Assembly (NCBI GenBank): GCA_002269645.1
Contig: NIVC01001480.1
Coordinates: forward strand, 14,051 to 78,050
Reading direction: 5' to 3'
Length of the DNA: 64,000 bases
Source of the DNA: Macrostomum lignano
Lineage: Eukaryota
Under the pieces are notes generated by a model that was not told the DNA's origin, searched no databases, and saw only the letters and a list, made by a program, of their open reading frames with translations. Numbering within the stretch: position 1 is the stretch's first letter; each line of letters starts with the position of its first letter. Below, in pieces: positions 1,156 through 64,000 of this stretch. The position numbers and the translations under genes are program-made.

Positions 1156-11381
<10,226 letters not shown>

Positions 11382-52616: not shown

Positions 52617-53297
52617 AGTAGGAAAAAATAAACGTCAACAAAAACATCAAATAAAATTTTTCTTTTTAGCCAACGTGTTTTGTCAAACACAAGACGTCGT
52701 CAGGGCAAATTCAACTAACCTTAATTTTCAGCACCAATATATTTAAGCAAAACAAACTGTACAGTCCAAAGGCAGGTCAAAACAGTCCGGTCTAGGCAAT
52801 CGGAGATAGATTCTTGGGACGCTCTATTGGTTCTCCCATTTTTTGGTAACGTTTCGCTTGACTTCATGAAAAAACTTGAGAAAACATTTAACAAATGGCT
52901 TAAGTGCACTGTTAGGATTGTTTTTCGCACTGAAAAGATTGGTTGCTATGCTAGCAGGCTCAAGTCAGCTGTTCCACTTGCTCTAAAGGCTGGTGTTGTT
53001 TACCAATTTCGCTGCTCTGAGGATCAGAGCATTTCCTACATTGGAAAAACAAAGCGACACCTGCACACTAGAGCTAGGGAACATTGGCTAAAAAGCTTTG
53101 TTATGTACTTGGCACTTTTGAAATTCTACTGGACTGTTTTGACTTGCCTTTGGACTGTGCAGTTTGTTTTGCTTAAATATATTGGTGCTGAAAATTAAGG
53201 TTAGTTGAATTTACCCTGGCGATGTCTTGTGTTTGACAAAACGCGTTGGCTGGAAAGAAATGTTTTATTTTATGTTTTTGTTGACATTTATTTTCCT
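52617..53297 (+). mobile_element. Penelope-like retroelement fragment (RT C-terminus plus GIY-YIG) between inverted repeats
   Basis: ORF 52827-53198 reads LPFFG...GVVYQFRC...YIGKTKRHLHTRAREH. Roughly 52617-52790 is an inverted copy of roughly 53128-53297. Confidence 0.75.
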
Positions 53298-54659: not shown

Positions 54660-57084
54660 AATTAAATATTATATATAATATAAGATTTAAATATAGCAAT
54701 ATATGCAAAATTTTTTTCACTTTATTTATTTGTTATTTTTATTAAGAATGCTTAAACACTTTTGAAAATTTATCTAATCATTATAAGTGTAAACCAATCA
54801 CTGTTCATTATAGGGAAACTATATTACAAGTAAAAAATTATTCAGTGCCCTATATATAAACAACTTTTTACCATGGCAAATGCTACTAGTTCAATATGTA
54901 TGGATAGTTTTTTAAAAGCCTTTTCATCAAATAGTCATTTGCTTATTTTGTCAAACATGTAGATGTCTATAGGATTCAAAATAAAATTTAAATAATTATT
55001 CTAGGTTAGGAATTTGATGCCTTATTGAAAGAAGTCCAAATGAATTAGAAAAGAACTTTATTTGTTCTGTATGTGTAGTGTTTCTATGAAAAAATATTTT
55101 TAAAAAGTAATTTTTGACTACTTAACTACTCAACAAAAATTCTTGATTTTGAGTCTCTAAAATAAACTTTAAATACAATGCTTTTTTAAATTAGGTGAGG
55201 TATCTATATTTGATAGGCCTAGTATTTAATAGAGACAACTTGATTTTGTCAGCCAGAATGTTTTTTATTTTTTGTTGTAATCTTCAATGTTTAAGATAAC
55301 AAATCCATTGCCCTTATCATGTTATAACACTAATAGAAAAGTCTGTTTCAGCAAAATGCTTTTTAGAAAAACAGTTGCTTATTATTTATTCCATTTTAGT
55401 TTAGATTCTATTGGTTCTGATTTTCAAAGCAAGTGCCTAATTCCCTATATGAAAATTAATAATGCCACATCAAGTTCTAATATAAGTAAAAATTCAAATT
55501 AAAGAATTAATACTTTTGTTTTGTTAGGACTCTGTGCATTTTTATGTTCATTAAGTCAAAAGTAAATGTCAAAAGGCAATATAACTTTCTTATGGCAATG
55601 GCTAGTCATAATATATATGAAACTACCAAAGTATATGCATGAATTTTATGCATGTCAGAATATTCAAGCATGTAGTTAGTTTTTAAGAGCTTTATTATGA
55701 GCTAGCTTCTATATACTAATTTTGCACTATTTGTCTATCTGTTGTCTGTCTGTCTATCTGTCTGTCATTGATCTTTTTGAAAACCATCTGGCTAATTTTT
55801 TTTCAAATTTGCTTTAAAAAAATTGACATTTTTAGAATTGTGCATAACTTTTTTGATAAAAAATTAAAATGGAAAGTGGGTCAAATATTCAAAAAATGAT
55901 TTTTTAATGCTTTCAATGGGCATTCTATTTCTAAATTTATTTGCTCAGTTCAACCATTTAGGCCTCTCCTTGGCCAATATACAGTCTAAGATATACATTT
56001 ACCACAATTGAGCTAAAGGAGTTTTATGACCCTTTGCACAGTGGGCTCGCAATTTGTAGGGTTGGTTAAAGTTTATTATTGTTGATGATAGAGAGTGGGT
56101 GCATGGGGGGGGGGTTAAACAGCTGGCCTAAAATTTATCAACCCCCTAAACTGCTCTGATCTTGTTTGTCTTATTTTATGAATACAACACTAGGTGGCGT
56201 AGTTGCAGAGGGGGGGGGTCAATAGCTAATGAGCCCAATTGATGCAAATTCATTTGGCAAATTGGTATAAAATGTCTATCAATTGTTAGTAAGTCAAATA
56301 TTCGAAAAACAATGTTTTTAATGTTTTTGATGTTTGAATTTTTTATTTGAATGCCAACCACTGGGGGCTGAGTGTCGTAGTGTGCTTTTACTCAGCAACA
56401 TCAAAAAGTCTGTGGTCGCCACTTTTTAGAGTGCAGGTAAAGCTTTTCTATCTTTGCGAGTGAAGCAACTTGCTATTCTGTGGCAGGCTTGAGTTGAGGA
56501 ATGAAGTGAGGGGGGGGGGTGCAGTGTGCGAGGGTTTTGTTGGATGGATTAAAGCTACCCAATCAGTTTTATTGTATATTTTATTTCAGAATAGTCCATG
56601 AGAAATTGCTCACTGGGGCATAGAGTGGCAAATTTCAAACAATAAAAAAATAGATTTAGAAGAAAGTCAAATGTTCAAAAAACAATTTTTCATGCTTTCC
56701 AAGTTTGGATTTTGAATTCGAATGCCCCCATGGGGGCTTAATGCGCTAGTATGTACTTTTAGTAGTATATAAAAAGGCGCTTCTAGACCCAGAGCACTTT
56801 TTTAATGACCGTTTTAAGGGTCTAGAGGGGGGACACGGGGGGTAAATAAAAAAACACATCTAAACACCATTAATACATCTAATCACCCATAATCACCCCT
56901 AACAATAAAAATCATTCCCAACACTTCCAAACACTCCCCAACACCCCCCTCGCGTCCCCCCTCTTAAGACCTTAAAAACGGCCATTAAAATAAGGTCTGA
57001 TCTGTAAGCGTCTTTTTCTATACTACTACTCTATAACCCCTTGCCCGCGCCGCAGGCGCGAAGGGTCTTTTTCTGTTACTAAAA

Positions 57085-57399
57085 ATGACCCGAGTTTACA
57101 CCTTTTCTGTTAGTGATACTTTTGAGACTGTTGCTAAAAATGCAGAGATAATAAAACAACATATTTTGAATGGAATAATTGATGAAGTTTATTTAAAATA
57201 TGACGACAAGCACGACCTAAAACTTTATCCATTAGAGCTAGATGAGATGTATGATTTAGAACAAGAGGGTGAGTTAATATTTCAACTTGGAGATTATTTA
57301 AATTCGGATGATTGGGAGGTTAGATCAACAGATTCCGAATCAACAAATAGTTCATATGAAACCAGTGATTCAGAGAATGAAAGTGAAATATTTATGTGA
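57085..57399 (+). CDS. Hypothetical acidic protein of the Polinton (104 aa)
   Basis: Clean ORF with the AAAA-ATG start context shared by the element's genes. Confidence 0.6.
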   Translation: MTRVYTFSVSDTFETVAKNAEIIKQHILNGIIDEVYLKYDDKHDLKLYPLELDEMYDLEQEGELIFQLGDYLNSDDWEVRSTDSESTNSSYETSDSENESEIFM

Positions 57400-57415
57400 A
57401 AAAAATATTTAAAAA

Positions 57416-57640
57416 ATGAACTATTATTCTATAACAGAAACGACATTTATTGTGAAAAATATATATAAAAAAATGAAGGTAAACTATTCCTACATCGGAA
57501 ATGTTCCAATTAATGAACTTAATGAAAATTTAAGTTTGATAACAGTTGAACAAATGTCAATAATAATATTAGTAACAATTATAGTAATAATATTGTTTTT
57601 GTTTGTAATAAAAAATTTACTACCATGTTGTCTTAAGTAA
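57416..57640 (+). CDS. Small single-pass membrane protein (possible alternative start 57473)
   Basis: Hydrophobic run IIILVTIIVIILFLFVI followed by LPCCLK; AAAA-ATG context. Confidence 0.5.
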   Translation: MNYYSITETTFIVKNIYKKMKVNYSYIGNVPINELNENLSLITVEQMSIIILVTIIVIILFLFVIKNLLPCCLK

Positions 57641-57650
57641 CTGTTTGAAC

Positions 57651-59291
57651 TTAGTTCGCAGACATTATCTGGTTCTCATAAAAAGAACCCAATATTTCTT
57701 CACCATCCTTATCAGCAATTATATAGGTTGTAGGATTTGTATTTAAAACTTTACTGATGGTAAATTTCTCACTTATTTTCCAATATCCTTTTCTTCCCTT
57801 TTCAAACTTATCTTTCCATTTATAGATATAAACAGAATCACCAACCTTAAAACCTTTAGTTTTCTTTTTTTCAAAATCTCCAAAAGTAACCCTAACATTT
57901 TCAGGATTGTTATAAGCTTGTTGAGGAGTCATCTTTATCGCCGAATGATATGAATTGTTATAATCTTTCACTACGTCTGGTAATATTTTTACCCACTTTT
58001 GGTTACCATTAAGACTAAACTGAAACCATAATTTCTTACCTAAAGTTCGATTAAATCTTTCTATTAATGCGTTTTTACTCTCTCCATAAATAGAATAAAT
58101 TTTATTAATATACTCCCCATTCGCGTCTTTTTTCCTTTCTTTTCCTTTTTCAAAATGATACAATTTATACATGTGAGGATTGTAAAATTCTTTTCCTTCG
58201 TCAACACACAACCTTTCACTTTTTTCTCCAAGACTTCTAAAAGCAGCAGCAACCTCCTCTCCCTTTTTGGATTTTAAAGGAACAGCCCACGCGTATCGAG
58301 TAAAACCATCTAATATGGTTAAGATATATTTATATCCTCTTTCGTTCGGCATCGACATTAAATCAGCATACCAAATTTCATTCTTTTTGAAGTTCATGAT
58401 TTTTCTATAAAATTTAGGTTTTCGATATTCTTTATGAAGAATCTTTGCCTCATCAGAACTTAACCCGCCGCCACTTAACAACAAACACTCAACACAATTA
58501 TTTCCATGTTGATTATAATTAATTCCCAAACCAAATTTAACTTTAGACTGCAAGATCTTTTTAACCATCCACCTAGTTAATTTTTGACCTACCGATAATC
58601 CCTGCAAGTTATCTAATCCTTGAATCATTTTTTGATCGGCTTCATGTTTTAATCTTAATGCTTCCTCGGGCGGGTTCTTGTCAGCATCTCTATATGCTAA
58701 GTCGTGATAGTATGCTAACCAATCAATCCCATTTATTGGAATTGAATCAGATTTTGGAGTATTGTCAGGATTTAATCTCAAATCTAAGCGAGTGCCGGGT
58801 AGTTTACCCTCAATCTTTCGAAAGAGGCTGGAGCACACCTTAAGCGGCGATAATTACCGCCCATCTCCGTCTGCTCTCTGAACCTTCTCCTTATATTTAA
58901 AATACTTAGGAGCTTGGCTGCGCATTGCCACCATGTCTTCAAGCTTGTTACCTTTGGGAAGAGGAGTTACCTCTGTTCCTTCAAAAGATTTCTCAATTGA
59001 AGTGGTACTTGAAGCTGTATGACGGGTTTCACGCAATTTGGAGACATCGCCACTAATAGTGACTAGCAGTAGCTTTGCTTCTACCACTCAGGCCACGGGA
59101 TAACCTGTGAAGTTCATTGATGGCAGGTGTAGCTCACCCGTATACCTCCCAGTAGTAAATATTGGTGGTAAGCTTGTTAATCCTTTTTGTAAGTCTAAAA
59201 ATCCTCCTTCAAATACTAATTGATCGTTCCGAAGGAACGCGGACTTCGTCCGATCGAACCTTCGGTTCGCATGCGTCGCATGATTGCTCAT
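57651..59291 (-). CDS. PLA2-domain / retroviral-type integrase fusion; exon 1 59103-59291, exon 2 57651-58799 (445 aa spliced)
   Basis: Spliced product reads GELHLPSMNFTG^PGTRLDLRL...PINGIDWLAYYHDLAY...EAD, the parvovirus-like PLA2 motif set (YxGPG-like loop, HD, AD). It continues into a Polinton-type DDE core: WYADL, VDEGKEFYN, IERFNRTL, YNNSYHSAIKMTP. Confidence 0.88.
58800..59102 (-). ncRNA. Group I intron, IC1-like, 303 nt, no internal homing ORF
   Basis: P1 exon CAGGU/GCCUG with U.G splice wobble. P3 GUCUCC/GGAGAU. P4 UGCGUG/UGCGCA. P5abc with CUUCAAG/CUUGAAG, A-rich bulge ACAAG and GAGA and GUAA tetraloops. P6/6a CUCC/GGAG. P7 GAGAGCA/UGCUCC. P8, P9 with GAAA loop, P9.0 AG/CU, and P10 with exon 2 CCCGG. 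Confidence 0.92.
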
Positions 59292-59841
59292 TTTTAATAG
59301 CCTTAAAAATACATGAAAGCACCAATTGTTTTGCAAACTCTTCAATGGTTGGTTGTTTAACTTTTTTATAGTTATTATCTACGCTAGTTAAGTATCTTTT
59401 ATTTGTCCAATGTTCAGACTTTTTCATCTGATCTTCATCTTTGTAACTAAACGAAGAAGCGGGAATGAAATGATCAATATCTAAATTTCCAGTATAATCT
59501 TTTGAAACATAATATTTTCTTGTGAAATTTAACCAATCAAAAAAGAATTCTTTTGTGCAATCAAGATATGAGATATAGTCCTTGTCATTAAAATTTTTCA
59601 ACGCCCAATTTATTCTATTTCTAATTAAAACAATATGTTTGTAATTATCATCATTGTGATACTTGTTTTTTCTATATTCATTAAATTTATCTTTATTGTT
59701 TTTCATCCAAATAGTAGATGAGGTATTATGACAAGATCGACAATCATTTCTAAATTTTTTTGAATCATTTCTCCAAAAATAAAATTCTTTCGTCATTGGT
59801 TTTTCTTGTTTACACTTAATACAAATCTTTTTAGGTTCCAT
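59209..59841 (-). CDS. Free-standing HNH-type endonuclease with N-terminal CxxC...CxxC zinc motif (210 aa)
   Basis: KICIKCKQEK...CRSC, then LDIDHFIP...HWTN..YLT..DNNYKK. The pattern resembles HNH nucleases of phages and large eukaryotic DNA viruses. Confidence 0.72.
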   Translation of the reverse strand: MEPKKICIKCKQEKPMTKEFYFWRNDSKKFRNDCRSCHNTSSTIWMKNNKDKFNEYRKNKYHNDDNYKHIVLIRNRINWALKNFNDKDYISYLDCTKEFFFDWLNFTRKYYVSKDYTGNLDIDHFIPASSFSYKDEDQMKKSEHWTNKRYLTSVDNNYKKVKQPTIEEFAKQLVLSCIFKAIKNEQSCDACEPKVRSDEVRVPSERSISI

Positions 59842-59868
59842 TTTATAAAAAATAAATTTAACAATTAA

Positions 59869-60540
59869 TTAAACTCCAGTATGTCCAGCAGCTTTCGCAG
59901 CAGCTAAAACAAGTTTTCGCGGTGTTTTAAATCCTTCTCCAACAGCTGGTTTGTTATTTATAGAATTAACAATCCTTTTATACAAGCTGGTATTTTTAGC
60001 AGCTCTTACTCCCAACTCATCATAAAAAATTTTTGCACTTACTAATTCATCCCTAGTATATAATTCAGGGTTAAATTTTACCCTAGGGTTCATAACAATA
60101 TTATATGCTCCGCCCAATTCTCTATATAGTTCATTTCGATTTTTATCAACTCCACCAATTCGATAATTATTATTACCTAAATCTGTCACAGCAATACTAG
60201 TTGGTGCAGCTCTCGGATATTCATCAACTCCACCCCTTTCTGCAGCCCTAATCTCTGCAACTCTCAATTGAGCTTGATCAACATCATAAGCAGGCGGCTC
60301 ATCCAAAATTTCATCCTCTTTTGGCTCAGTATTTTTAGCAATTTTTTCCAGAAGATCTTTATCTGTTTTTTCTAGTTCACTAATTTTCCCAGTAATAGGA
60401 TTAACAAAAGGAGCAGCAAATCTTTCACCCGCTAATTGTATTCCTAACTTTCTTTTTTGTAAATTTCTAACAAAATCAGAATATCTTTGCTTCTCTTTAT
60501 AAATCGCTAACTCTCCATCAACGTCCATAAATTGACTCAT
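59869..60540 (-). CDS. Hypothetical Polinton protein (223 aa), possible virion core protein
   Basis: Clean ORF with AAAAA-ATG, divergent from the capsid gene; contains PPAY. Function is not recognised. Confidence 0.65.
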   Translation of the reverse strand: MSQFMDVDGELAIYKEKQRYSDFVRNLQKRKLGIQLAGERFAAPFVNPITGKISELEKTDKDLLEKIAKNTEPKEDEILDEPPAYDVDQAQLRVAEIRAAERGGVDEYPRAAPTSIAVTDLGNNNYRIGGVDKNRNELYRELGGAYNIVMNPRVKFNPELYTRDELVSAKIFYDELGVRAAKNTSLYKRIVNSINNKPAVGEGFKTPRKLVLAAAKAAGHTGV

Positions 60541-60574
60541 TTTTTAACATAAAAAACTTTTTTAACTTAAAAAA

Positions 60575-62047
60575 ATGGCTGAAACAAAAACTATGTGGAG
60601 TGATAAATTTCATTTCAAAAAGCACCGACAGTATATTAATGAGGTCAGAGCAAGAGATTTAAATTATACCCTACCAACAAGTGATAATTCAAATAACTTT
60701 ACTACTGGAACGGTAACTTTTGACATCGGCGCAACCAACACTATATTGGATATGAAAAATGCATTTTTCCGTGTTAGATGGTTGTATACTAGAAATGATG
60801 GAACTGCTCTTGCAGCCGGAGATATCGCAGATCGATCCGGAATAATAATAGAAAATGATTGGTTTTATAAATGTTTTTCCCAAGCTCAACTAACTGTTAA
60901 TGGTGCTGAGGTTGAGACATCATCAAACCCCGCAGAGATTAATGGAGTTTTGAAACATTTAAATTATACTTATTTATCAAAACAAGTTGGTGATAATGTT
61001 GGGTGGATGCCGGATAAAGGTAACGGTCAAGCAGTAGTTTTCCCTAATGTACAAAACGCAGCCGGTGCAGATACTGCAGCGCTAATTGTTTACCTTAATA
61101 CAAACATAGTTCCAGTTGTAACCACTATGACTAATACAAAAGATATTAATACTGGTTTTATAGATCGTCAGAATAAATTCCCAGTCGCGGTTTTAACCAC
61201 AGCAACAGCATATGAGCAGGACTTTTCAATCTTTCCACTATTTGGGTTTTTCTCACCAAATCGGGTATGGAAAGGATTAAAATTTGGGATACAGTTGCAA
61301 ATATCTGGTGGATATCAGCCTAGGATACTTTATGGAACCTCAATTTCAACCGATATAGCAGTTCGTATAGATTCAATTCAATTAGTCGTACCAACTATTG
61401 AGGTAACAGCCCCACTTTTAAAACACATCGATAATCAGTTAACGCATGATCAGGAAATATTTTATTTGAATCGTCGACATTTTATGCGAACCATTAATAA
61501 TAACCAGGATTCATTCCAGTGGCAAATACTGACATCAAAACGTCGGGTGAGATATATTTTTGTTTGGTTTAAGATAACAAATAGAAGGAGTAAAAGAGCA
61601 AATGGGGATTTATATTGGCTTCAATCCGGTGCCATAGCAGAACAAGCAGCCACCGCAACAGACAATGCGGCTGCAGCTATTAACGAGTTTAATGTTCAGA
61701 ATATCCGCCTGCAGGTTGATGATCAATATTATCCGGTTAAAGACCCCCTAAATTTAAATATAGCAAATAATAATGTTAATGATTTTATAAAATATTATCA
61801 AGATTATGCTAAAAATGAAGCGTATGCCGTCCCTCAGTACACACCCACAGAGTTTCTAAACATTCATCCAGTGGTTGTTTATGATCTAACGGCACAGAAA
61901 GAAAACGTAGCCAATATTGGACTTAATTATATGTTAGAGATTAATAAAACTGGTAATCAGGCACTTGACGCCCACGTATTGTTTCTAGAGGAATATATGT
62001 CAATTGCTAAAGCTGATGGCACGATTGTTCGGGACGCGCCACTTTAG
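60575..62047 (+). CDS. Major capsid protein (double jelly-roll, Polinton PY/hexon-like), 490 aa
   Basis: VTFDI...LDMKNAF, CFSQAQLTVNGAEVE, RYIFVWF, NVQNIRLQVDDQYYP and PVVVYDL match the Polinton capsid pattern; size and gene context fit. Confidence 0.8.
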   Translation: MAETKTMWSDKFHFKKHRQYINEVRARDLNYTLPTSDNSNNFTTGTVTFDIGATNTILDMKNAFFRVRWLYTRNDGTALAAGDIADRSGIIIENDWFYKCFSQAQLTVNGAEVETSSNPAEINGVLKHLNYTYLSKQVGDNVGWMPDKGNGQAVVFPNVQNAAGADTAALIVYLNTNIVPVVTTMTNTKDINTGFIDRQNKFPVAVLTTATAYEQDFSIFPLFGFFSPNRVWKGLKFGIQLQISGGYQPRILYGTSISTDIAVRIDSIQLVVPTIEVTAPLLKHIDNQLTHDQEIFYLNRRHFMRTINNNQDSFQWQILTSKRRVRYIFVWFKITNRRSKRANGDLYWLQSGAIAEQAATATDNAAAAINEFNVQNIRLQVDDQYYPVKDPLNLNIANNNVNDFIKYYQDYAKNEAYAVPQYTPTEFLNIHPVVVYDLTAQKENVANIGLNYMLEINKTGNQALDAHVLFLEEYMSIAKADGTIVRDAPL

Positions 62048-62130
62048 TGTCGCAGTGCAAAGCACGTCGCCCCCGCTGTAAGCGGCGCAGGTCTCCGACC
62101 GTCGCGCCTATTTAAATTATTTCTTTAAAA

Positions 62131-62830
62131 ATGGTAAAGGCAAAACACGATAAGATATTTCCAAATGATCCTTTTCTTTGTTTAGTAATCGGAGGATCAG
62201 GTAAAGGAAAAACACACTTTGTTTACGATTTATTAACAACAGATGGAATGCTAGACTATAATAATTTAATAATTTATACTAATAAACCTAGAATAAAATA
62301 TTATGAATTTCTTAAACATGGATTAAAAAACAAATTAAAAAAAGATGTCTTGTTTAGAATGTTAAGAGCATATGAGCAATATGAGGATGATGACGAACCG
62401 CGATTTACACTCGATGACATTGAGGATTTATGTAAAACAATGGCACAACAGCCAGAAAACATCACCGAACGAGCCCCAACTGTTAGAGTATCAACCGATT
62501 AGCCTATGATCAAATTCCAAAACATGATAAAACACTAATTATTTTGATGATTGTATTAATGACGGTGATCAAGAATTGCAAAAGGAAATTTTTGTTAGTG
62601 GTAGAGGAGATGGAATTGGAGCTTTTTATCTAACACAGTCCTTTAGAGAATTAGAATCGATTATAAAAAAGAATGCAAGTTGTTGTGTAATGTTTGATTT
62701 AGATAATTATGATTTACAAAATATACACGCTAGATTTAATCCCGGGTTGGATGCAAAACCATTTAAAAGTATGTGTAAAAAAATTTGGGATGATAGCCAA
62801 TACAAACATATTTATATCAATCGAGGTTAG
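62131..62830 (+). CDS. A32/FtsK-like packaging ATPase, with apparent 1-nt deletions near 62500 and 62543
   Basis: Walker A LVIGGSGKGKT. Walker B LIIFDD and VSGRG...FYLTQSF...KNAS are recovered by adding single T's in T runs. Confidence 0.85.
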
Positions 62831-62902
62831 AAAGGAAAATCGAATCTTAAAAGATCTTATAAAAGAAGACAATGAGGAAGAAGAATAATTCCCACTATAA
62901 AA

Positions 62903-63694
62903 ATGGCTACAAATTTAGATACTATAAAACAATTGTAGATCGAACTAATTCAAAATTTAGTACAACATTACAGTTTATAATGACAACCAGCGAGCAACGG
63001 ATTCAATTGCGCGATCCATTACAACTTGATCAAAGCCTAAGTTATCAAATTAGGTTTGATATTATTTTCGGTTTTTAACATGCCTCAATTAATTAATGCA
63101 ACAAATAATCAATTTAGATATTCTAAAGATTCCGGAGCCAATTGGACAACATTTAGCGTTAACCCAGGAGCGTATAGCTATACTGATTTGAATGCTTATA
63201 TAGAAGGAGAATTAACATCTAACGGCGATTGGGTAGCAGGCGCGATTGTTATAGGGGTTGATTTACCATCTGGCAGATTCACACTATCACTAGGATCCGG
63301 ATATCAGGTTGATTTCACAATTGCAAATTCAAATTCACTCAGAACCATACTTGGATTTAATTCCCGAATAGTTACCACATCAAGCACCGGTGATACAGTT
63401 GGAAATATAGAGGGTGGAGTAAATACAATTAATATAACAACCGACATTTCAAACGGTGGTTATATAACAGACGATAACGGAGTTTTGGTTCAACGTGGAA
63501 TTATTTATTCAATCCCATTTCTTGCTGTTCCAATTGGAGAGAAAATGATTGTTTCACCTCAAACCCCAATATATTACCCATTAAATCAATATAATGTTCA
63601 ATCAATTTATATTAGGATTGTAGATGAAAGCGATAGATTAATAAGTTTTGGTGGGCAATCAATAACAGTAATTTTACGTATAAAACAGGTTTAA
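62903..63694 (+). CDS. Minor capsid (penton-like) protein with N-terminal frameshifts
   Basis: LRDPLQLD...YQI(G)L...FN...INATNNQF, PGAYS..DLN, INITTDISNG, IIYSIP, YYPL and IRIVDESDRLISFGG..ITVILRIK. Confidence 0.75.
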
Positions 63695-63707
63695 TCGTAT
63701 AGTAAAA

Positions 63708-63887
63708 ATGGGTAATAATAATAATAATTTACTAAAAAAACAATCAGAAAAAGTTAAAAAAGCTGAAGATAATTACGAACTAGAACTAGCAAAATTAAGG
63801 CAGTTACAAGCTGATAAAATAAGAAAGGAATTGTTAAAACCCACACCTATTAAACTAACTAAAACCAAAAGTTTTTCAGGAACATAA
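63708..63887 (+). CDS. Small basic hypothetical protein (59 aa, starts MGNNN)
   Basis: Open frame with AAAA-ATG context, packed between the penton and the next gene. Confidence 0.45.
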   Translation: MGNNNNNLLKKQSEKVKKAEDNYELELAKLRQLQADKIRKELLKPTPIKLTKTKSFSGT

Positions 63888-63888
63888 A

Positions 63889-64000
63889 ATGACCATGACG
63901 TGGGATGATTTTAAACAACGATATGGAACAGACACAACAAGCAATATCGAATTAACAAATTGGGCGCGGCAGTTAAAAATAAAACCATTTAGATGTGTTA
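63889..64000 (+). CDS. N-terminus of probable adenain-like cysteine protease (truncated by window end)
   Basis: TSNIELTNWARQLKIKPFRCV resembles the SN.DL....L.I..FRGV start of Polinton proteases. Confidence 0.5.
   Translation, partial: MTMTWDDFKQRYGTDTTSNIELTNWARQLKIKPFRCV

Follow-up and report, generated by a model that had tools for sequence, protein, structure and literature searches.

Group I introns are treated as ending almost invariantly in a guanosine, the omega-G. In the window analysed here, a stretch of 64,000 nt of the Macrostomum lignano genome, a group I intron that splits the integrase gene of a Polinton/Maverick-type element ends in an adenosine. Comparison of its copies suggests that omega-A at this locus is an unusual derived majority allele and probably a working variant. 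The explanation that we favour, with slightly better than even confidence, is an intron that would still splice and would ligate its exons more slowly. With this locus, group I introns apparently also occur in protein genes of elements that have inserted into the nuclear genome of an animal, and three intron types and two nucleases appear to compete there for one site.

The element and its integrase gene

The window is animal host DNA, with matches to an ion-transport channel (E 2e-52) and to an amiloride-sensitive sodium channel (E 7e-24), from a genome of 764 Mb. The host part also contains an Rfam potassium-channel RNA editing signal inside a host Kv channel gene (6830-6943, 61.3 bits) and, in the flank at 52625-53294, 167-nt inverted repeats (92%) around a GIY-YIG-like fragment.

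The element has an rve integrase, a packaging ATPase together with a capsid-like gene, and a defined terminus at many host sites, as expected of Polintons/Mavericks (Table 1). This terminus is common to 9 sibling stretches, with 9 distinct flanks among 10 termini. The integrase match scores slightly below the Pfam cut-off (31.8 bits against 32.6, E 1.7e-7) and its D-D-E residues are invariant. The ATPase was recognized as Pox_A32 in a sibling copy (E 8e-7), where it forms a single 266-aa ORF; the two ORFs of the window copy reflect either a real break or an assembly error. The element ORFs gave ESM Atlas feature matches of 0.97-0.98 to viral clusters, two of which carry DJR/Capsid_N on 10-24% of their members, which is a lead rather than proof for the capsid identity of the capsid-like ORF. 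The window contig ends before any PolB; a sibling copy contains the PolB-like motifs DANNLYG, NNAFYGK and YADTDS, yet gives no Pfam or PHROG match to PolB.

The integrase gene starts with a parvovirus-type PLA2 domain. Exon 2 matches Phospholip_A2_4 at E 0.013, and the PLA2 domain reaches E 2e-7 in an intron-less copy. The PLA2-integrase fusion has 366 homologue matches, many of them environmental among the 120 matches listed.

Table 1. Coordinates of the element, its genes and the parts of the type A intron, as positions in the window
Feature	Position	Strand	Remarks
Polinton/Maverick-type element	56761..64000	.	terminus AGTAGTA... at 56761; other side cut by the contig end at 64000
Exon 2 of the PLA2-integrase gene	57651..58799	-	remaining PLA2-like domain and rve integrase; 382 open codons
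Group I intron, type A	58800..59102	-	303 nt, ORF-less; P1-P10 with a P5abc-like extension; splits the PLA2-integrase gene
Terminal intron base A (omega-A)	58800	-	in register with the CUG end of the sister intron
P9.0, P9 and linker	58801..58829	-	P9.0: 58829-58828 with 58801-58802 (A58829-U58801, G58828-C58802); P9: 58827-58808 with GAAA loop
J8/7 and P7 3' strand	58830..58841	-	AAGGUG 58841-58836 and UGCUCC 58835-58830; C58831 = C311 equivalent, G58836 = position-306 equivalent
A261 equivalent and P7 5' strand	58872..58879	-	A261 equivalent 58879; GAGAGCA 58878-58872; G58876 = G264 equivalent
P1	59089..59107	-	U-G wobble at the 5' splice site (U59103-G59093), U-G in 71/71 distinct rows
P10 guide	59094-59100	-	4 of the first 5 pairs with exon 2 in register
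Exon 1 of the PLA2-integrase gene	59103..59291	-	63 codons in the window copy, counting an in-frame palindromic insert (~59222-59288); compared with an intron-less copy (L031)
Free-standing HNH-type endonuclease ORF	59209..59841	-	directly upstream of exon 1; PHROG endonuclease VII/HNH matches
Capsid-like ORF	60575-62047		within the element
A32-like ATPase	62131-62830		within the element; split into two ORFs in the window copy
ORF without assigned function	63056-63694		within the element

The intron and its 3' end

A whole-window Rfam scan at the gathering threshold missed the intron, and a local E-value scan recovered it as an RF00028 match at 59112-58809 (59.8 bits, gathering 50; E 2.7e-14). 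Across 71 distinct aligned rows, its helices are maintained by covariation. P2 has four two-sided swaps (about 50 against 21 rows) and two-sided swaps also occur in P3 and P9; in P9, a C-G pair becomes A-U in 6 rows and a U-U mismatch becomes A-U or U-A. Taken over all helices, pairing is kept in approximately 37 variant pair types, of which 15 are two-sided, and lost in 33. P5a/b/c-like helices are present and conserved. For IC1, a candidate subgroup, the expected marks are a P5abc extension with an A-rich bulge and P/Q/R/S elements of the IC1 type.

The initial annotation had placed the last intron base at 58800, an A, on the basis of P9.0, P10 and the protein frame, and two further comparisons agree with it. 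Three intron-less copies read G/PGTRLD across the site (the slash marking the junction) and thereby fix the intron ends independently of any structure. In addition, a sister intron occupying the same site in a second Polinton family (76% identical) ends in CUG in 22/22 copies, in register with the CUA found here. Among 37 candidate 3' ends between 58822 and 58786, only 58800 and 58821 were in frame with both P9.0 pairs, and since 58821 is a U inside P9, 58800 is the sole plausible position of this kind.

The other site to be weighed is the in-frame G at 58809 (GAG/GGU), which the initial annotation had named as the alternative that cDNA might reveal. Splicing there would retain three extra codons and turn the A/G difference at 58800 into a synonymous third position (CTA/CTG). 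The G is present in 86/87 rows, and the two commonest polymorphisms of the 9-nt tail, at 58806 and 58800, are indeed synonymous in that frame. Nevertheless, the tail also varies non-synonymously (CAG in 11 copies, CGG in 1 and ATG in 1), the site lacks a P9.0 pair, forms 2/5 pairs of P10 and has its G engaged in a P9 pair. Moreover, the sister intron has a different tail with a canonical P9.0 and a G exactly at the 58800 position, and three residues would be inserted into a conserved G-P-G loop. We regard this site as very unlikely to be the true one.

Frameshifts in homopolymer runs occur commonly in the copies and may point to errors in the assembly, and an A that is private to the window copy or wrongly assembled had to be considered. 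This reading is refuted: contigs of two other studies, from runs X1 (58588-58853) and X13 (58729-58853), span 58800 with 0 differences, and A was found at 83 of the 113 loci described below. Of the group I hallmarks that can be read from sequence, the window copy lacks the terminal omega-G, the U-G pair of P1, the core helices and an uninterrupted allele all being present. The omega-A is a mark of a variant and not of exclusion from group I introns, a published member, ND5-717, being likewise without omega-G.

Of the 19 listed data sets that contain the sequence, none is recorded as RNA and 14 were only guessed to be so. In the contigs of four runs (X1, X3, X4 and X13), no joint skipping 58800-59102 was found, a result that speaks neither for nor against splicing because rare forms are lost from contigs and the runs could be of DNA. 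The same contigs contain joints of 60-65 nt at the palindromic insert, and unspliced pieces span both splice sites.

The P7 and J8/7 core and its giant-virus relatives

The unusual core described in the initial annotation, namely P7 GAGAGCA/UGCUCC and J8/7 AAGGUG with a retained equivalent of the G264-C311 pair, was found in full on the minus strand (Table 1). J8/7 is invariant in 71/71 rows, P7 is paired in all of them (in one row via G-U), and the guanosine-binding pair G58876-C58831 is G-C in 71/71.

In Tetrahymena, four triples make up the guanosine site: A263-C262-G312, omegaG-G264-C311, A261-A265-U310 and A306-C266-G309 (PMC10020454), and the equivalent numbering used here was assigned by analogy with them. 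Compared with that site, the G-binding pair, A261, A263 and A265-U310 are unchanged and 262-312 is flipped, as in the consensus used by the initial annotation. Positions 266, 309 and 306 all differ. In view of these triples, and since intron types B and C (see below) and a distant viral relative, L148, have C266-G309 with A306, the 266-309 and 306 changes appear to form one whole base-triple layer (G266-C309 with G306). This layer makes no guanosine contact and would account for most of the oddity of P7 and J8/7. A304 and A306 are also metal ligands, through phosphate oxygens in the same structural account (PMC10020454), and such ligation need not be disturbed by a base change.

A link between this core and the omega-A was implied in the initial annotation and is not supported, as the variant P7 and J8/7 are fixed alike in A- and G-copies and are common in introns of giant viruses that end in G. 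The core pattern was found in 11 metagenomic and at least 124 viral stretches; it required both G266 and G306, so their co-occurrence in these matches is by construction. Fetching 80 of the viral stretches gave 76 distinct introns, mostly in giant-virus RPB1 and capsid genes, 14 of them with exactly this P7. All 52 introns with an anchorable exon end in G, and the remaining 24 have no assigned end. The P7 swaps and the last J8/7 base thus appear to be an older lineage signature, ordinary for this group of introns, and the idea that they compensate for the omega-A was rejected on the same grounds. In parallel, the HNH ORF upstream of exon 1 is 30% identical (E 2e-18) to an ORF inside a giant-virus RPB1 intron of the same core, which points to a giant-virus source.

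Other viral searches gave fewer relatives. A loose scan returned mostly chance matches (2 introns among 80 fetched loci), a long-P8 scan found 0, and a single protein query gave no match. An alignment scan gave 27 loci, one of which has an intron at the site studied here. This locus, L148, is an IMG/VR contig of 10.7 kb with a distant PLA2-integrase element, whose group I intron ends in G. Its position marks the site as a hot spot for homing in the PLA2-integrase family as a whole. The homologues P0003, P0039 and P0042 also start at the same junction. About a dozen IMG/VR contigs (L369 and related loci, 50-nt cores) have the variant core, and no exon could be assigned downstream of their P9. 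L399, which had looked like an omega-A relative, was discarded, its anchor being spurious, 78 nt away and outside the RPB1 frame.

Omega-A as a population allele

The paralogue check that the initial annotation had called for came out in favour of A. At 113 fetched non-duplicate loci, the last three intron bases read CTA in 83, CTG in 17, CAG in 11, CGG in 1 and ATG in 1, that is 83 A against 30 G; some of these loci may be allelic duplicates and one pair shares a flank. A strict pattern search gave 81 A and 15 G in 96 copies (hand count), and 51/71 distinct rows end in A. Both bases were found on otherwise identical intron bodies.

The initial annotation had offered an inactivating mutation in the window copy as one of two explanations. 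Besides being the majority allele, A is not associated with decay. Among the A-copies, 47 have an open, 33 a broken and 3 a cut exon 2; among the G-copies, 16 have it open and 14 broken. The open fractions, 47/80 uncut A-copies and 16/30 G-copies, do not differ (Fisher p=0.67), so the A-copies are no more decayed than the G-copies and an inactivating mutation in the window copy is refuted. Many of the exon 2 breaks lie in homopolymer runs and may be assembly errors.

Omega-G is the ancestral state and omega-A the derived one, since G ends the sister intron (22/22), the L148 intron and all 52 assignable viral relatives. Trees used to count origins of A gave 12 changes for the intron and 6 for exon 2, numbers that are uninterpretable given recombination. 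We infer a single origin of A followed by shuffling. A second route to a weakened 3' end, a broken P9.0 in the CAG, CGG and ATG copies, was considered and found weak, both in-register P9.0 pairs being present in only 23/52 viral relatives.

Selection, recombination and recent integration

Exon 1 and the 382-codon exon 2 are both open in 49/102 copies, which formed the set for selection analysis. In 29 distinct open A-copies, piN/piS was 0.17 (exon 1), 0.07 (PLA2 part) and 0.15 (integrase). The corresponding values were 0.29, 0.07 and 0.17 in 11 distinct G-copies, and 0.12, 0.06 and 0.16 within the main A haplotype. The H/D/Y/D residues of PLA2 and the D-D-E of the integrase are invariant in 37/37 open A-copies. 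The A-copies are under purifying selection in both exons. Copies without any difference along about 1.56 kb, a span that takes in both exons and the intron, occupy different insertion sites, meaning that A-elements have integrated recently.

Recombination is heavy. Mean r2 is 0.61 for sites 1-5 nt apart, 0.21 at 16-30 nt and 0.06 beyond 150 nt, linkage decaying within 15-30 nt. The omega position is linked solely to the two nearest exon sites (r2 0.59 and 0.33), so A sits on shuffled backgrounds and did not hitchhike on one clone. By the same token, the selection signal may predate the omega-A, and complementation between copies is allowed.

The second ribozyme step could also be bypassed, by removal of the region by the host spliceosome or by translation of the integrase from an internal start in exon 2. 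Shortly ahead of the 5' splice site a CAG is followed by GT, 73/102 copies have an in-frame TAG acceptor 14 nt inside exon 2, and an ATG in frame precedes the integrase domain in exon 2. Nevertheless, the acceptor is unlinked to the omega-A (r2 0.05), and splicing at it would remove the PLA2 loop, although purifying selection acts on exon 1 and on the PLA2 codons; the ribozyme helices are also maintained by covariation. Such a bypass seems highly improbable.

How an intron ending in A would splice

In the explanation that we favour, the intron would be an active group I ribozyme from a lineage related to that of giant viruses, which has nearly saturated one homing site in the calcium-loop codons of PLA2, and in which omega-A would have arisen secondarily and become the majority allele. 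The first step would be normal, as neither the guanosine pair nor the two triples that flank it have changed. In the second step, the terminal A could not form the standard triple with the G-C pair, and the 3' splice site would be placed by P9.0, P9 and P10. The outcome would be accurate but probably slower or partial exon ligation, sufficient for continued integration of the element. Two precedents exist. The hexacoral intron ND5-717 ends in A and is ligated perfectly, with more than 70% unspliced (PMC6545197), and an engineered Tetrahymena system reached at least 55% efficiency together with accuracy with omega-A, -C or -U, given strong flanking pairing (PMC11417360). The omega-A variant suggested in the initial annotation is real, and the slow or assisted ligation suggested with it is plausible by the precedent of ND5-717.

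Several observations weigh against this explanation. The G-C binding pair is kept, so that A is a mismatch in the site. P10 is weaker in the commonest A haplotype (-3.3 kcal/mol) than with the other exon variants (-7.0 to -8.4 kcal/mol), and compensation of the omega-A by P10 was therefore rejected. Furthermore, the engineered result used long added homology arms that are absent here, and G-copies and intron-less copies could supply the protein in trans.

The last point leads to the main rival, which we consider unlikely though to be taken seriously: omega-A copies would be unable to ligate their exons, would be non-autonomous for the PLA2-integrase, and would spread by means of protein from copies that end in G or lack the intron. 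The 3' splice site is normally set by omega-G (PMC5192423), possible donors exist in the form of 30 G-copies and 3 intron-less copies, P10 is weak in the main A haplotype, and heavy recombination would imply co-infection, which permits complementation. On the other hand, a cheater at 73% would be hard to sustain with no excess of broken ORFs, with invariant catalytic residues and with low piN/piS even in the main A haplotype, and both natural and engineered omega-A introns do ligate (PMC6545197, PMC11417360).

Conversely, omega-A might be neutral or mildly beneficial and splice about as well as G, perhaps by removing the competition of omega-G at the first step and by avoiding circles. Omega-G does compete with exogenous G and restrains the first step (PMC2588497), circularization requires omega-G (PMC6545197), the engineered system tolerates any omega base with at least 55% efficiency (PMC11417360), and A and G occur on otherwise identical bodies. 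However, the retention of G in 52/52 assignable relatives and in 22/22 sister introns indicates that G is normally selected, and the natural precedent ND5-717 is inefficient (PMC6545197). This possibility appears improbable.

A more speculative reading, which we hold to be doubtful, takes up the throttle proposed in the initial annotation: elements with a weakened 3' splice site would be favoured by selection because less PLA2-integrase is made. The omega-A (83 loci) and the out-of-frame junction of the type B intron (23/23, see below) would then be parallel solutions. If this were true, a minority of elements would keep a textbook 3' end, and a ribozyme taken over from giant viruses would serve as a tuned control on integration inside the nucleus of an animal.

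Other introns and nucleases at the same site

Two further intron types are present in the same genome. Type B (L025:2271-2598; L033-L055; about 24 copies) uses the same 5' site with a P7 of ACGACUG/CAGUCU and a J8/7 of AAGACA. Two extra bases early in exon 2, in 23/23 copies examined, put its homologous junction out of frame, and the downstream ORF is open in most copies. An in-frame G eight bases further would form a stronger P10 (-10.8 vs -7.2 kcal/mol) and would lose two loop residues. Type C is the sister intron of the second Polinton family (L318-L345). It has a canonical P7 and carries an Eco47II-like nuclease ORF in P2.1, and 14 intron-less copies of the same family were fetched. Although their cores differ, types A and B are almost the same in the P2, P2.1 and P5abc blocks, a pattern suggestive of introns exchanging modules.

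All 102 type A copies have a nuclease directly upstream, which is HNH in 78 and Eco47II-like in 24, the latter being a homologue of the ORF within the type C intron. A free-standing Eco47II-like homologue also occupies the upstream slot of 7/23 type B copies. The HNH ORF is present as well in the 3 intron-less copies, so it is not strictly tied to the intron. This slot could be a snapshot of a nuclease entering or leaving an intron.

Short multi-hairpin palindromic inserts are polymorphic among the copies. They precede exon 1 in 28/102 copies by a motif test, and a 30-nt insert in P5c gives 23 intron alleles of 333 nt (for example L027); related inserts occur in type C introns. They are possibly a small mobile hairpin element.

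Comparison with known systems

For metazoans, a review names group I introns in mitochondria of Placozoa, Anthozoa and Porifera, and it also mentions cases in nuclear rDNA and in a shark ITS (PMC8393795). No report of group I introns in animal Polintons or of a natural omega A/G polymorphism was found in the literature searched, which includes few subscription papers. Likewise, word look-ups in papers on nematode, adintovirus, entomopoxvirus-PLV and coral polintovirus elements, and on mosaicism (2026), turned up no group I intron.

The element resembles Polintons/Mavericks (adintoviruses) in its integrase, A32 ATPase, capsid-like gene, terminal repeat and parvovirus-VP1-like PLA2, and in the PolB-like motifs of a sibling (PMC8502044). 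Whereas the adintovirus PLA2 is joined to pX, here it forms one protein with the integrase and its gene is split by group I introns. Integrated elements with RF00028 introns of 309-376 nt are known among Polinton-like viruses of protists (cryptophyte, Paulinella and Desmodesmus). These are reported to be limited to a few protist groups and to lie in a short gene upstream of the capsid gene (PMC12220804).

Introns of the Bodo saltans virus type, in giant-virus RPB1 and major capsid genes, share the core (GAGAGYA/URYUCC with J8/7 AAGGUG) and a homologous HNH, and they have ORF-less offspring (PMC5871332). They differ in sitting in free giant-virus genes and not in the PLA2-integrase of a Polinton in an animal genome, and in the terminal G found in all 52 assignable relatives. 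The free-standing nuclease beside an ORF-less intron in every type A copy recalls collaborative homing (PMC11296320), although the HNH is here a putative partner and also occurs in intron-less copies.

The closest parallel for the terminal base is ND5-717, which also combines an A end with a conserved core and ligates accurately but inefficiently in vivo (PMC6545197, PMC8146996). That intron is mitochondrial, obligatory and vertically inherited and has genes in P8, whereas the intron studied here is an optional one of 303 nt in a nuclear-integrated viral element and is A/G polymorphic in one genome. The omega-A seems to have arisen independently of ND5-717, as the close relatives of the type A intron end in G. 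ND5-717 is a huge intron, hard to assay and without a G counterpart, whereas natural A and G on otherwise identical bodies of about 300 nt make the cost of losing omega-G directly measurable.
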